Origin: an uncultured Methanosarcinales archaeon
GTDB taxonomy: Archaea; Nanobdellota; Nanobdellia; Woesearchaeales; CAYZNE01
Assembly: GCA_964405295.1 (NCBI GenBank)
Contig: CAYONI010000001.1
Coordinates: 179,608 to 243,607 of the forward strand
Length of the DNA stretch: 64,000 nt
Reading direction: 5' to 3'
The notes beneath the pieces were generated by a model. The model saw only the letters and a list, made by a program, of their open reading frames with translations, was not told where the DNA came from and searched no databases. This document shows, piece after piece, positions 57,331-63,960 of the stretch (position 1 is its first letter; every line of letters starts with the position of its first letter). A program made the translations under genes and the position numbers.

Positions 57331-58791
57331 CTATTCTTTAAGTTCTTTTTCTGCTTTGTAACGTTGATATCCTTCTTCATATTTTTGTATTAACATAATA
57401 TTACCTAATGAACTAGCAGTTCCGGCACTAATTGCAAGATCCATATCATCAGGAGGATTATTCATCAACTCTTGGGGTGTTTTTCCTTTATCTCTATATC
57501 TCATATAATAACTCATTCCTTGAGCAAAATCATCTATTTGTAATTCACTTGCAAGTTTGTTCACTGCCTCTACAGGAAATGTAGTACCATAACTAGTTAT
57601 ACTGCCTATCATCATGTTAGAACCACCAGCAATGATCCCATAGCTAGCAAGAGTATCCCTAGCAACTTTTTTATCCATTGACCACCTAATATAAGTATCC
57701 ATGGTTTGTATAAAATGAGTAGGTTTTTTTATGTCTTTTTTATAATCATCTAAAGTTAATTTTGCTATTAGCCATTTATGTTCTTTATCTGCATCTTTGT
57801 AACTAGTATGAAACCAATTAATGGGGTTCAGTCCACTAAAGAAAGTAATATCTTTAAGTTTTTGCCAAGTAGTTGGTTCAAGTAAATGTTGCAATGAAGA
57901 TTTCCATACTCCTGAACCTCCAAAAACAAGTTGATCATTACTTCTTCTCATTACAGCTATCCGTTTTATTTTTCCATCTACCTTTAGTTCAATAACTTTA
58001 TATTCATTAGACTTAAGAGTTCTATATACTAATTCCAATTGTTCTTGTTCTTTATTTTCAAGTTTAATCCCTTTGGGTGGAATAAATTTACAGCCACCTT
58101 CGACCCGTTTATATCCTTCTTTACATGCACATAAAGTATGTATTTCTTTTGTTTTTGAATCAACAATTTCAGTTTTTATTTTTTCTTGGGGACTACAACC
58201 ATTAGCATCATAATCATCAAATGTCCAATTTATTACACAATCAATCTTACCTTTATTATCATAAGCAGAACACTCCTCATACTCGATTTCTCCAAAAAAA
58301 GTTGCGCCCATCCAATCATTAAAATTGTCAAGTTCAACAAATTCAAAATCGACGATGTCATTGTAAAAATCTTCTAGAAAATTAGTTTCATTATCATCAT
58401 TGTCAATTTCATCGTAGTAATCATCATAATTTCTATTATCATTATCACTCCCTTCAAAATCTTTTACTAGAACAACAATATCTTCTCCAGGGCACATATC
58501 ATCTGTATGTATACAAGCATAAAGACATCCAGGACAAGAGGTATACTCCCAATCTCTGTGACATGCTTTATTGGGATCATTAGGTTTTTCATTAATTGAA
58601 CCTACTGAACCACAGACACAATCTTTGGTATAACTATAATGTGCATCAGCTATTGAATTACAATCACTTTGAACACAACCTACACCACTCATTCTCTGCC
58701 ACTCATATCCTGGTTTACAATCTTGGGCATTTACTAAACTAGTAAAAAGAATAAAAAATGTTAAAAATATAAAGATTATAGTTTTTTTCAT
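57331..58791 (-). CDS. secreted Cys-rich protein
   Basis: Sec signal MKKTII...VNA|Q, 10-Cys N-terminal domain, acidic linker, EGF-like CACKEGY...GC. Confidence 0.8.
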   Translation of the reverse strand: MKKTIIFIFLTFFILFTSLVNAQDCKPGYEWQRMSGVGCVQSDCNSIADAHYSYTKDCVCGSVGSINEKPNDPNKACHRDWEYTSCPGCLYACIHTDDMCPGEDIVVLVKDFEGSDNDNRNYDDYYDEIDNDDNETNFLEDFYNDIVDFEFVELDNFNDWMGATFFGEIEYEECSAYDNKGKIDCVINWTFDDYDANGCSPQEKIKTEIVDSKTKEIHTLCACKEGYKRVEGGCKFIPPKGIKLENKEQEQLELVYRTLKSNEYKVIELKVDGKIKRIAVMRRSNDQLVFGGSGVWKSSLQHLLEPTTWQKLKDITFFSGLNPINWFHTSYKDADKEHKWLIAKLTLDDYKKDIKKPTHFIQTMDTYIRWSMDKKVARDTLASYGIIAGGSNMMIGSITSYGTTFPVEAVNKLASELQIDDFAQGMSYYMRYRDKGKTPQELMNNPPDDMDLAISAGTASSLGNIMLIQKYEEGYQRYKAEKELKE

Positions 58792-58916
58792 AATAAATGT
58801 ATTAGGTATTGCTAATTTATAAATAATTTCTTTTTTTGAGTAAAGAGGATGCAACACACATAAGTAGGAATAAAAAAAAAGAAACCTTTATATTCTGTTG
58901 ACAATTAATTTGAGTT

Positions 58917-59516
58917 ATGAGCACATTTTCAATTAAATATATACTTTTACTTATACTAGTCTTGGTATTAGCAGGTTGTTCTGGATCAAATATCAAAGAT
59001 GATTTCTGTGGTGTTCATATTAACTATCAATATTGTAAATGTGCATTCCATAATGAATATTGTGATAGTATAGGAATGAGTAAAAGTGAAGCAAAAACCT
59101 ATGTTTATTCAGAATATGAAACCTGGCTTGACACGCAATTAGAAGAAGATAAATATGGTATTATTGAGAAAGACGGAAACCTTTATCTTAACTCTGAACC
59201 TAGAAAAGTATTATCTATTAAAACAGAAGATTTGCCTGTCTGGGCTCGTGGAAAGATTGCTACTGTTGGCGCAACAATTGCAGTAGTTGGGCCACCTGAT
59301 ACAATTATAGAAGGTGACAGTAATGTTCTTCTTGATGGGCTTCCTATTGCAAGAGAAGGAGATGGGACTGCTCAAAGAGGAGAAATTATTGAAGGTTCAG
59401 AAAATATATTTGTAAATGGCAAACCTGTAGCACTCATTGGCAGCCAAACAGTAAACCCTATGGTGACTGGAACTGTACCTCATGTAGGTGGACCAATAAC
59501 TAGTAACACTAACTAA
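58917..59516 (+). CDS. lipoprotein with C-terminal PAAR-like domain
   Basis: Lipobox LAG|C21; PIAREGD, PVALIG, GPPDTI, PHVGGPI. Confidence 0.85.
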   Translation: MSTFSIKYILLLILVLVLAGCSGSNIKDDFCGVHINYQYCKCAFHNEYCDSIGMSKSEAKTYVYSEYETWLDTQLEEDKYGIIEKDGNLYLNSEPRKVLSIKTEDLPVWARGKIATVGATIAVVGPPDTIIEGDSNVLLDGLPIAREGDGTAQRGEIIEGSENIFVNGKPVALIGSQTVNPMVTGTVPHVGGPITSNTN

Positions 59517-59577
59517 ATTAGAACCATCTTCTTTATTAAATATAATTCAAAGATAAAAAATCAGTGAAGAAAAAGTA

Positions 59578-60324
59578 TTATTCTTCAACTTCTACTTTCC
59601 CATAATATTTATATGCTATTTCTGGTCGATAAAAATGCATCCAGTCTTGCGAATTTTTCCAGTCTCCACCCCACTTCCAACCTTCCTCTTTGAATATTTT
59701 TACAATTTCTGAATCTGCTTGGAGTGTTCCTTTTTTACTTAGATCACGAGGATAATTTGGAGAATTTGGTAAACCTTTTTTGATAAAAGGATTTAGTACA
59801 GAATTTATGTCAATAGCTGCTCCAAAAGCATGATCTGAAATCTCGTTACTATTTTCTACAAAACGCCAATCAAATGCTCCGCAATTATTAAGTCTTGAAG
59901 ATGTATTCCAATTAAACATACTAATTGGAAAAATACTTGTCATAGGGAAATCCGTTTCTAAAAGAATTCTTTTGAAAATTCTCTTTATTGAAGATACTAA
60001 ATATTTATTGATGATGATTTGACCTGGATATATTTGATTATTAAAACCTCTGTAATCAACATTAACTAGTTCTATTTGATCAATTATTTCTTGAGGTACT
60101 TTTTTTTCCCTAAGAGAATCCAAAAACTCTTTTTGAGTCATAAGTCGCGGTTGGATAATAGGTTGTTTGTAGTTTAAAGGATTTTCTAATATTTCTTTTA
60201 AGGTACGCGAAGGCCACAATTTCAGTGCTATGTTTTTTGTTTGTAGATCTTTGGTCTTTGATTTTTTAGTAGAATCTTTTAATTTAATTTCTAGTTGTTT
60301 AAGTCTCAGATTCATTTCATTCAT
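59578..60324 (-). CDS. M15 family Zn peptidase (peptidoglycan peptide hydrolase type)
   Basis: R...SDHAFGAAIDIN, WKWGGDW, DWMHF. Confidence 0.9.
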   Translation of the reverse strand: MNEMNLRLKQLEIKLKDSTKKSKTKDLQTKNIALKLWPSRTLKEILENPLNYKQPIIQPRLMTQKEFLDSLREKKVPQEIIDQIELVNVDYRGFNNQIYPGQIIINKYLVSSIKRIFKRILLETDFPMTSIFPISMFNWNTSSRLNNCGAFDWRFVENSNEISDHAFGAAIDINSVLNPFIKKGLPNSPNYPRDLSKKGTLQADSEIVKIFKEEGWKWGGDWKNSQDWMHFYRPEIAYKYYGKVEVEE

Positions 60325-62143: not shown

Positions 62144-63157
62144 ATGACAAAAGAAAATAAATCTAAAGAATATATTTATCTGATTGCAATTATTGCTATA
62201 ATTGCTATTGTAGGTATTTTAACAGTAAACAATATAAATCTAGAAAATATTGGTGGCAAAGCATATACCAAAGAAGAATATTCATATTATACAGAAAAAG
62301 ATATATCCCTAATAGAAAAATTTGCTGATGCAGTAGAAAAAGAAGAATATATAAAAATAGAACTAAGTGATGGTTTAAAAATAGAATTTTATTTAACTAG
62401 CACACTGGAACATTTTGTGGAATTTTCTGAAGAAATAGAGCCTATTGAAGTAAATGAATTTATAAACAATAATGCGCGTGAATCAGATCCTTTATTCAAT
62501 AAAATTGATAAATTCTTCAAATCTCCACAAATTAAAAACTTACCTTTTTATAATGTTGAAATAAATACCAAAAAAACTGAACTAAAGCAAACAATCTTAG
62601 ATAATGTTCAAGGAATTATACCAACAAGAGGCTGCTCCTGTGGTAATAGTTTAACAATTTGTTTATGGGCAAGTCAAAATCTTTGTGCGACTGGAAGTGG
62701 CGGGGGAAATATTTGGTGTTTTCTAGAAGATACAGAAATAGATTTAAATGAGAAAAGCGAAAAAATCCAGAATATTATAATAGGGGATATTGTTAAATCT
62801 TATGATACAGAAAATAATGAAATAGTTTATTCAGAAGTAACTAATATTTTTAAAGGCAAAACAAAGGAGTATTTCCTAATAAACAATAACTGGCAAGTAA
62901 CACAAAATCATCCTTTTTGGATAGATGAAAAATGGAAAAAAGCATCAAATATAGAGGTAGGTGACTTTTTAATGTCAAGTAATAAACAAGATATAAGGGT
63001 AGAATCAATAATAAAAATTCATGAAAATGCAGACATTTACAATATTGAAGTTAATAATTACCATAACTATTTTGCAAACAATGCACTAGTGCATAATAAA
63101 GCATTTGTTGGTGGATACATTACAAGTGTTAGTATTAAAATTTCTTTTACATTCTAA
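62144..63157 (+). CDS. membrane-anchored protein with Cys-rich segment and Hint domain
   Basis: N-terminal TM; Hint from CFLEDT to LVHN. Confidence 0.88.
   Translation: MTKENKSKEYIYLIAIIAIIAIVGILTVNNINLENIGGKAYTKEEYSYYTEKDISLIEKFADAVEKEEYIKIELSDGLKIEFYLTSTLEHFVEFSEEIEPIEVNEFINNNARESDPLFNKIDKFFKSPQIKNLPFYNVEINTKKTELKQTILDNVQGIIPTRGCSCGNSLTICLWASQNLCATGSGGGNIWCFLEDTEIDLNEKSEKIQNIIIGDIVKSYDTENNEIVYSEVTNIFKGKTKEYFLINNNWQVTQNHPFWIDEKWKKASNIEVGDFLMSSNKQDIRVESIIKIHENADIYNIEVNNYHNYFANNALVHNKAFVGGYITSVSIKISFTF
62717..63097 (+). other. Hint / bacterial intein-like domain (127 aa)
   Basis: Block A CF, block B TQNHPF, block F IYNIEV..HNYFA, block G VHN; no endonuclease. Confidence 0.9.
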
Positions 63158-63444: not shown

Positions 63445-63960
63445 TTAACTTTGAAGACTACTTTTTGTGGTTCCACCACCAATAAATCTTCCAACACACT
63501 GAGTACAAGTACCTCCTATATGACATTCTTGTGGACCAGTCTCAGTACAAATAGCAGGCCCATTATATCCTGATGCTGCAATACAATAACAATTCCACAT
63601 TCCCTGTCCATAATCGCCCCTAAGAGGTTCACCATCAGAATCAAATGTAGTAAATATACCTGGCTCTGTTTCGACTAATCTATCATGCTTTAAAATTTCA
63701 AGGGTATCGCAACCGTTTAGTACAACTCTCTTTACAATTTTTTCAGCTAACAAATATTTTGTTAAATCAGATTCTTCAAAATTAGATTCATCAATCATAC
63801 TAGTTTCAATTGCTTGTCCACCAATATTATCATAATTTAATTCTTCAGTAGGAAAAACAACAAAAACTTTATTACCACCTAGAAGAATCGCAACAATCCC
63901 TACTATGGCAATAATAGCAACAAGTGAAACTAATACATACTTATCATTTTTTATATCCAT
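63445..63960 (-). CDS. membrane-anchored protein with C-terminal Cys-rich peptide (likely paralog of 62144..63157)
   Basis: AIIAIVGI TM, NIGGQA, CYC...IC-x7-C..C..C; GAGGT SD. Confidence 0.82.
   Translation of the reverse strand: MDIKNDKYVLVSLVAIIAIVGIVAILLGGNKVFVVFPTEELNYDNIGGQAIETSMIDESNFEESDLTKYLLAEKIVKRVVLNGCDTLEILKHDRLVETEPGIFTTFDSDGEPLRGDYGQGMWNCYCIAASGYNGPAICTETGPQECHIGGTCTQCVGRFIGGGTTKSSLQS

Follow-up and report, generated by a model that had tools for sequence, protein, structure and literature searches.

Here we present a computational analysis of a single gene located near the end of a 64,000-nucleotide stretch of contig CAYONI010000001.1 (below, the window), which encodes a predicted membrane-anchored orphan surface protein with a Hint domain in its interior. 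The open reading frame (ORF; 62144..63157, plus strand) is present as quoted in a preliminary description of this DNA, made from its letters alone, and comprises 337 amino acids plus a stop codon. Five parts follow one another on the plus strand. The N-terminal hydrophobic anchor occupies residues 11-28 (62174..62227), with Lys-rich residues 3-8 ahead of it, and was modelled by AlphaFold2 as helix 3-29. Residues 45-156 (62276..62611) form an alpha/beta ectodomain body, and residues 157-191 (62612..62716) a Cys- and Gly-rich linker ending GGGNIW. The Hint domain covers residues 192-318 (62717..63097), and the remaining 19 residues, 319-337 (63098..63154), make up the C-terminal flank, called the tail below. 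The anchor suggests an N-in/C-out topology, in which the ectodomain would face outward.

The Hint domain runs from C192 (TGT codon, 62717-62719) to N318, and its terminal H317-N318 together with the following K319 is encoded by CAT AAT AAA at 63092-63100. A length of 127 amino acids and a Lys in the +1 position, with no Cys, Ser or Thr there, had been reported in the preliminary description and were confirmed from the sequence; the strings given for the N-flank and the tail were also exact. In Pfam, residues 207-313 matched the PT-HINT family PF07591 with 50.4 bits vs a cut-off of 27.7 (E-value (E) 3.5e-13). Weaker matches were obtained with the intein, Hedgehog-Hint and Vint models, and the Hint family PF01079 gave 20.6 bits, under its cut-off of 29.7. 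The six-frame search of the host genome recovered one PT-HINT copy, in the gene described here.

The AlphaFold2 model of the whole protein was built on a 23-row alignment and gave predicted local distance difference test (pLDDT) values above 90 across residues 192-318. The model was compared with about 48,000 representative PDB chains. The best fold match was 2LWY, a bacterial intein-like (BIL) domain of Clostridium thermocellum (Z 21.8, root-mean-square deviation 1.2, 130 residues, 27% identity), followed by 6TMM, the BIL2 domain of the Tetrahymena BUBL1 locus (Z 21.6, 29% identity). Further matches were to mini-inteins (Z 15-20) and to Hedgehog 1AT0 (Z 17.9), and every one of the 30 solved chains with Z of at least 8 was an intein, BIL, Hedgehog or Vint domain. 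When PDB was searched by sequence, the best matches were 6Y75/6TMM (E 5e-9) and 2LWY (E 7.7e-7). With the Pfam E-value given above and fold matches to BILs and inteins at Z 15-22, the assignment as Hint, already made in the preliminary description, lies far above chance.

The catalytic positions are intact. In the 23-row alignment H256, V316, H317 and N318 are invariant, and C192, T197, G214, D215 and T253 are nearly so. The Thr-x-x-His motif of block B is present as T253-Q-N-H256, and C192, which would serve as Cys1, is the sole Cys inside the Hint. Lys occupies the +1 position in 11 of the 23 rows, vs a Lys background of 9.1% in the genome's ORFs of at least 150 amino acids; because the rows are related, the figure is descriptive only. 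Judged by its sequence, the domain has all features of a type-A BIL, namely Cys1, TxxH, a His-Asn end, no +1 nucleophile and a non-conserved host, and it lacks the features of a canonical intein at +1 and at the host site. A C-terminal His-Asn is given as the defining end of type-A BILs in parts of PMC4031507 and PMC7765530. By analogy with its closest solved relatives, which are BILs, an intact Hint of this kind is expected to autoprocess, as had been proposed earlier for this gene, and we consider it very likely to be active.

The protein that carries the Hint has few relatives. A word-index search of 5.8 billion clustered proteins with the 337-amino-acid protein returned the protein itself, one orthologue (P0002) and a third protein (P0003) matching in the Hint only; with residues 283-337 as the query, the same search gave the protein itself alone among 21 candidates. 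An exhaustive phmmer search with residues 40-191 against 1.84 billion representatives retrieved the protein itself, P0002 (E 1.6e-25) and P0006, a repeat-rich protein of 1188 amino acids whose 40-residue match (E 7.5e-4) was judged spurious. We also searched, in six frames, 301 genomes from the host's order; G000 is counted among them, as is G112, which is flagged as unpublished. No Hint-less homologue was found in the 5.8 billion clustered proteins, the 1.84 billion representatives or the 301 genomes; a match to the ectodomain in G024 (74 residues, 32%, E ~1e-3 per genome) is non-significant over that many genomes. In the ESM Atlas, residues 40-191 gave no feature match and a structural template modelling score of at most 0.33, and none of the PDB representatives matched the ectodomain fold above Z 4.7.

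The orthologue P0002 is 373 amino acids long, 51% identical and of the same architecture, including HN-K, with Lys again at +1, and a tail that keeps the GGYITS motif. Scans of metagenome and genome contigs did not find its locus. By region, identity to P0002 is 41% in the ectodomain, 58% in the linker, 58% in the Hint and 42% in the tail, and constraint on the Hint is therefore no weaker than on its host. In the AlphaFold2 model the ectodomain body consists of helix 51-65, strands 70-73, 79-84 and 90-102, and helices within 103-156, with means of pLDDT over 10-residue blocks of 64-93 across residues 41-150. Residues 156-188 are modelled as unstructured (pLDDT <50). The linker Cys residues C164, C166, C173 and C181 are invariant in P0002, and the linker ends at the putative N-terminal scissile bond W191|C192. 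The host had been described as a small Cys-rich peptide; what we find instead is a membrane-anchored ectodomain of ~110 residues with a tail, in which the Cys-rich stretch is a low-confidence linker.

The 19-residue tail starts with K319 (+1), continues with a GG hinge and ends in an amphipathic beta-strand at residues 325-336, which AlphaFold2 modelled as one long strand with means of 63 and 74 for the covering pLDDT blocks. Several weak non-Hint fold matches of the model (Z 3.3-4.7) span residues ~89 to 337 with only 60-104 residues aligned, 76-82 in some of them, which is consistent with a match to the ectodomain and the tail that skips the Hint. In a complex test, residues 40-160 and 192-337 were modelled as two chains in three runs, along with three controls. 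The interaction prediction score from aligned errors (ipSAE) was 0.71 (runs 0.74, 0.69 and 0.71), and the best of the three controls scored 0.02; the runs share at least 77% of their contacts, and the partner pLDDT is at least 83. The mark used in this test is reached by 116 of 157 solved complexes and by 2 of 215 mismatched pairs (rough counts, with a custom alignment). The confident interface of the partner comprises residues 322-337 only. The tail pairs antiparallel with residues 89-104 (98:327, 94:331, 92:333) and also contacts helices 111-121 and 134-155. The control in which the Hint and tail were kept and the ectodomain was swapped for an unrelated protein gave an ipSAE of 0.02. With no solved relative of the ectodomain available (best Z 4.7), the score is unlikely to reflect recall of a known complex by the predictor.

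The sequences of the two orthologues are consistent with such a strand. The odd positions 329-337 are hydrophobic in both (V/I, I/V, I/V, F/Y, F/Y), and the even positions vary (S/E, K/E, S/S, T/S). Two predictors thus place the conserved tail as an antiparallel strand on the ectodomain strand 89-104, and we hold that the tail is probably a structural strand of the ectodomain. Because the tail is a predicted strand of the N-terminal domain, the Hint and the Cys-rich linker seem to interrupt a fold. That the Hint interrupts something had been proposed earlier; this part of the proposal stands on the predicted tail strand, and the comparison with the neighbouring gene, by which it was then argued, does not hold (see below). 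A C-terminal sorting signal or an outer-membrane beta-signal was considered for the tail and rejected, given the lack of a hydrophobic helix and of a basic end, and the archaeal host.

The same type of Hint is found in 69 of the 301 genomes of the order, including the other three genomes of the genus. The strong matches cover residues ~160-333 only and lie in open frames of 265 to >8000 residues. Copies fetched from relatives start with CF(L/T)xGT and end with LVHN, and are followed by 1-7 residues (L004, L012, L023, L030), by 38, or by up to >500. A Cys-rich stretch, with at least 4 Cys in the 50 residues before Cys1, is present in 9 of the 26 rows of relatives, with a Gly/Pro/Thr-rich linker after it; such Cys-rich linkers precede the Hint also in unrelated proteins of related archaea. 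Because the Hints of relatives often have a Cys-rich stretch upstream, the four-Cys linker is a local form of a recurrent spacer and not a peptide product. Descent of the stretch, by decay, from some known family of Cys-rich repeats was also considered; this was dropped, as Pfam at E<=1 returned no family for it or for the upstream stretches of six relatives.

Some of the matches are of interest in themselves. L027 (G027:C25:1081-1524) is a contrast case, a canonical intein in an apparent GyrA motif (...GQGNFG|C...HN|SVDGD) with Ser at +1. The metagenomic P0003 (383 amino acids) combines a domain like the phage T4 gp19 tail-tube protein (PF06841), a Hint ending in HN followed by Lys, and a tail of ~70 residues; about 30 residues before its Cys1 stands a CxCxNxL motif, which resembles CSCGNSL in the 337-amino-acid protein. 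P0003 could be a tube protein with self-released cargo. In L003 (G270:C36:1-2257), two or more tandem Hint copies share one open frame, with Thr/Ser-rich linkers between them, and at G222:C77:4023-5297 and G049:C93:6298-7807 matches to the C-half and the N-half of the Hint alternate in runs. In L005 and L008, Gly-rich repeats (GG..L.L.GG.A..) extend past HN-K-G over hundreds of residues, and these tails may be beta-helix-like fibres placed after, rather than before, the Hint.

On balance we favour the reading that a Hint of the type-A BIL kind, lodged between the ectodomain body (residues 45-156) and its last strand (residues 325-336), excises itself to leave a ligated or nicked ectodomain. 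By well-established Hint chemistry, and given the intact Cys1 and block-B Thr and His, an N-to-S acyl shift at C192 would convert the W191-C192 peptide bond into a thioester, and the invariant His-Asn suggests that cyclisation of N318 would cut the N318-K319 bond. As a +1 Cys, Ser or Thr is missing, no branched ester could form. Either the freed amine of K319, or its Lys side chain, would attack the thioester beside it and ligate the flanks, or water would win and the flanks would separate. In both outcomes the Hint would depart and the tail strand would remain docked on the ectodomain, so that the mature product would be an ectodomain freed of its Hint, ligated or in two nicked pieces, of the same architecture with the tail docked. 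PMC4031507 describes type-A BILs as ending in His-Asn and as able to splice by way of the freed amine, with cleavage products dominating; for BIL2 of BUBL, the portion of PMC8616854 concerned describes transfer of the N-flank to a Lys side chain as an isopeptide. That ligation is the main outcome here is possible, though we think it doubtful.

Several points speak against this reading. Type-A BILs give mainly cleavage in what is described in parts of PMC4031507 and PMC7765530, and by analogy ligation may be minor or absent in the 337-amino-acid protein. The family has two members only, and because of this there is neither covariation nor a Hint-less allele to prove that the flanks were once contiguous. 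The structural argument consists of predictions made with 2-3 rows over the flanks, the tail blocks have pLDDT means of only 63 and 74, and the two chains of the complex test were cut from a single polypeptide, a situation that tends to favour passing. A model may also place an amphipathic strand against an exposed sheet edge where it would not lie in life. Finally, some Hints of relatives close their proteins but for 1-7 residues and others have hundreds of residues behind them, and such varied placement suggests that the Hint acts as a shuffled cassette and not as an intein of one site.

A stronger version would make the domain a true splicing element: a BIL-type Hint inside an extracytoplasmic fold, with the +1 Lys as nucleophile and the two halves re-joined outside the cell. 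The nucleophile would be the epsilon-amine of the Lys before Asn cyclisation or its alpha-amine after it, and the docked tail strand would act as a clamp, letting ligation by the amine compete with hydrolysis. We regard this as rather unlikely. If true, the +1 Lys, present in roughly half of the copies from related archaea, would mark a clade of 'Lys-splicing' surface Hint cassettes of DPANN archaea.

Among known systems, the type-A BIL of 2LWY resembles our domain in the fold, the N-terminal Cys, the Thr and His of block B, the His-Asn end and the lack of a +1 nucleophile, and it likewise sits in a non-conserved secreted protein and not in a conserved enzyme. It differs in that the host here is archaeal, the 19-residue C-flank is a predicted strand of the domain of the N-flank, and a four-Cys linker stands before Cys1. 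BIL2 of BUBL (6TMM/6Y75) is the best match by sequence, and BUBL uses a Lys amine as thioester acceptor, according to a portion of PMC8616854; here a Lys is the +1 residue. Its flanks, unlike ours, are ubiquitin-like domains in eukaryotic cytoplasm; here they are an orphan ectodomain and a 19-residue strand, and neither Pfam nor the fold search detected a ubiquitin-like fold in the 337-amino-acid protein. The PT-HINT domains of polymorphic toxins (CdiA, Rhs, MafB) belong to the best-matching Pfam family and also lie near the C-terminus of a surface protein, but the present host is small and anchored by an N-terminal helix, and its Hint is followed by 19 residues with no toxin domain and no co-directional immunity-like gene downstream. 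Mini-inteins (NpuDnaB 4O1R, gp41-1 6RIZ) share the fold (Z 18.7-19.6) and the Cys1, TxxH and HN motifs, as well as an insertion that interrupts a folded host domain, if the complex prediction is right. They differ from our protein in its lack of a +1 Cys, Ser or Thr and of a homing endonuclease, in its host, which is neither conserved nor cytoplasmic, and in that the searches for Hint-less homologues reported above found no Hint-less allele of it. With Hedgehog 1AT0 the likeness is one of fold only.

Apart from excision, the N-terminal thioester alone could matter, through transfer as in Hedgehog or BUBL: an outside nucleophile, for example a hydroxyl or amine on a lipid, S-layer protein or partner-cell surface, would attack it and the C-terminus of the ectodomain would become covalently joined to that target, with the tail merely holding the Hint until then. 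BUBL BIL2, our best match in sequence and second in structure, conjugates its N-flank to Lys of other proteins, as part of PMC8616854 describes. The thioester here would lie at the end of a ~35-residue linker, relatives with tails of 1-7 residues (4 fetched copies) can productively use the N-terminal chemistry only, and the strong over-representation of Lys at +1 also fits. The invariant terminal His-Asn argues, however, that C-terminal cleavage is used too, unlike in a Hedgehog-type (Hog) domain, where cleavage at a C-terminal Asn is lacking; there is no target, no region like those of sterol or adduct recognition after the Hint, and the tail is conserved as a strand predicted to dock on its own ectodomain. 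We consider transfer improbable. Release in the manner of polymorphic toxins, by which the PT-HINT would free the 19-residue peptide as a toxin, a signal or a membrane-active product, seems to us highly unlikely. The best Pfam match is PT-HINT, and parts of PMC3482391 describe HINT as the releasing peptidase of bacterial polymorphic toxins and propose that a C-terminal HINT frees the toxin domain; P0003 joins a phage-tube-like N-terminus, the same Hint type and a ~70-residue tail, and genes with a PAAR motif and for a peptidase M15 lie 2-3 kb upstream. But 19 residues are far below described toxin domain sizes, carry no Pfam domain, are predicted to be buried as a strand of their own ectodomain and are non-polymorphic in their core pattern when the two orthologues are compared; the gene that follows is convergent, on the opposite strand, and not a co-directional immunity gene. 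That the Hint no longer processes anything and serves at the cell surface for structure or binding we judge very improbable. Its Cys1 thiol, once secreted, could oxidise outside the cell, but every catalytic position is intact and conserved in the orthologue and 22 relatives, no other part of the protein is better conserved than the Hint, and C192 is the lone Cys of the Hint, while the four linker Cys are even in number and could pair mutually.

The preliminary description offered another model, in which the Hint is inserted into a small Cys-rich peptide paralogous to the neighbouring protein of 171 amino acids (63445..63960, minus strand, convergent), so that its removal would restore an F[VI]GG ending. 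The strings quoted from the neighbour are present exactly as given, and both proteins have a CxC motif and additional Cys. Both also share an N-terminal module, consisting of a Lys/Asp-rich start, an anchor of the AI(I/V)AIV type and N[ILT]GG[QK][AV] 10-25 residues later, which a pattern search found in 4 of the 2526 ORFs of at least 60 amino acids in this genome. The tail alone scored 27 against the end of the neighbour, vs a mean of 16.2, with 42 of 5000 shuffles reaching that score; this is due to the short F[VI]GG match, a motif chosen post hoc. BLASTP gave a collinear alignment of the N-terminal stretches (107 columns, residues 11-102 vs 11-114), which is non-significant at E 63. Against these stand the other comparisons: the best BLASTP E was 11, neither protein found the other by tblastn at E<=10, and hhalign of the two 2-sequence alignments gave 11% probability over 19 columns, in the membrane helix only. 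The Cys-rich N-flank (residues 161-191) scored 25 against the Cys-rich end of the neighbour vs a shuffle mean of 27.0 (reached by 3194 of 5000), and the Hint-less join 33 vs 27.9 (941 of 5000). The claimed match of the flanks is thus not above chance by BLASTP, tblastn, hhalign and most shuffles. The IC-x7-C spacing is C-x5-C in the sole orthologue P0002, and the residues that follow F[VI]GG in the neighbour's family are polar and not conserved, in contrast to the amphipathic strand of the tail; the AlphaFold2 model of the neighbour (mean pLDDT 39.5) is too poor for a fold comparison. We find this model scarcely credible. The two proteins have only the N-terminal anchor and leader in common; a very distant kinship of the N-terminal parts is possible, and, as far as the evidence goes, the neighbour stands outside the Hint system.

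The carriers of the N-terminal module are the Hint protein (window 62144-62260), the neighbour (63820-63960), the paralogue that the neighbour has elsewhere in the genome, on contig C2 (C2:86947-87465, 65% identity to the neighbour), and a Cys- and acid-rich protein of 399 amino acids (C5:18607-19806). The orthologue P0002 lacks the GG motif. The module may be a lineage-specific leader or processing signal, and its resemblance to a double-glycine site is a guess. Beyond the neighbour, and partly past the window end, lies a Cys-rich protein of 418 amino acids (C1:243977-245233 in the coordinates of its own genome, minus strand); as it comes after the 171-amino-acid neighbour, the contig end holds a run of Cys-rich surface proteins. 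At 2-5 kb upstream of the Hint gene (window 57331-60324) there are three secreted or surface genes: a Cys-rich protein of 508 amino acids (57331..58857, minus strand), a lipoprotein-like protein with a PAAR motif (58917..59516, plus strand; PF05488, E 1e-17) and a protein like peptidase M15 or D-Ala-D-Ala carboxypeptidase (59578..60324, minus strand; PF13539, E 4.6e-19). The PAAR protein and the cell-wall peptidase look like bacterial parts for weapons or wall remodelling. The spacers flanking the Hint gene had no Rfam match at gathering scores, and a lone small nucleolar RNA match (E 0.8) is at chance level.

The genome of the host, a marine archaeon, comprises 1.27 Mb in 98 contigs, with a G+C content of 31.5% and a completeness of 96.8%. 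A search for rRNA found no small-subunit rRNA in the 98 contigs, and the archaeal assignment is made from the proteins of the window, which include aEF-1alpha, aEF-2, Kae1, Elp3 and a DHH-CID (GAN-type) nuclease. On its genome size, its composition and its set of genes, the host would be DPANN-like. The sequencing runs containing the gene are two marine-metagenome DNA runs only, either of which may be the source sample; no RNA run containing it was found among the runs listed.

The type of the domain is already known; its interest lies in the split fold that is predicted and in the frequency of Lys at +1. BIL and PT-HINT domains are described in bacteria and ciliates in the parts of PMC4031507, PMC7765530, PMC8616854 and PMC3482391 that concern them. 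Searches of open-access PMC and bioRxiv returned no paper on DPANN surface proteins with a Hint of this type. To our knowledge, few BIL and PT-HINT domains have been tested so far. If the present one is merely another self-cleaving end module, it is ordinary. The protein nevertheless offers a small and tractable construct, with an ectodomain of ~110 residues, a Hint of 127 and a tail of 19, which could be used to ask whether nucleophile-free or Lys-mediated ligation takes place in a natural extracellular archaeal protein, and whether it is the docked split fold that drives this. Together with the occurrence of the Hint type across the order, it is one more indication that very small symbiotic archaea use shuffled cassettes that cut themselves to decorate and remodel the proteins of their surface.

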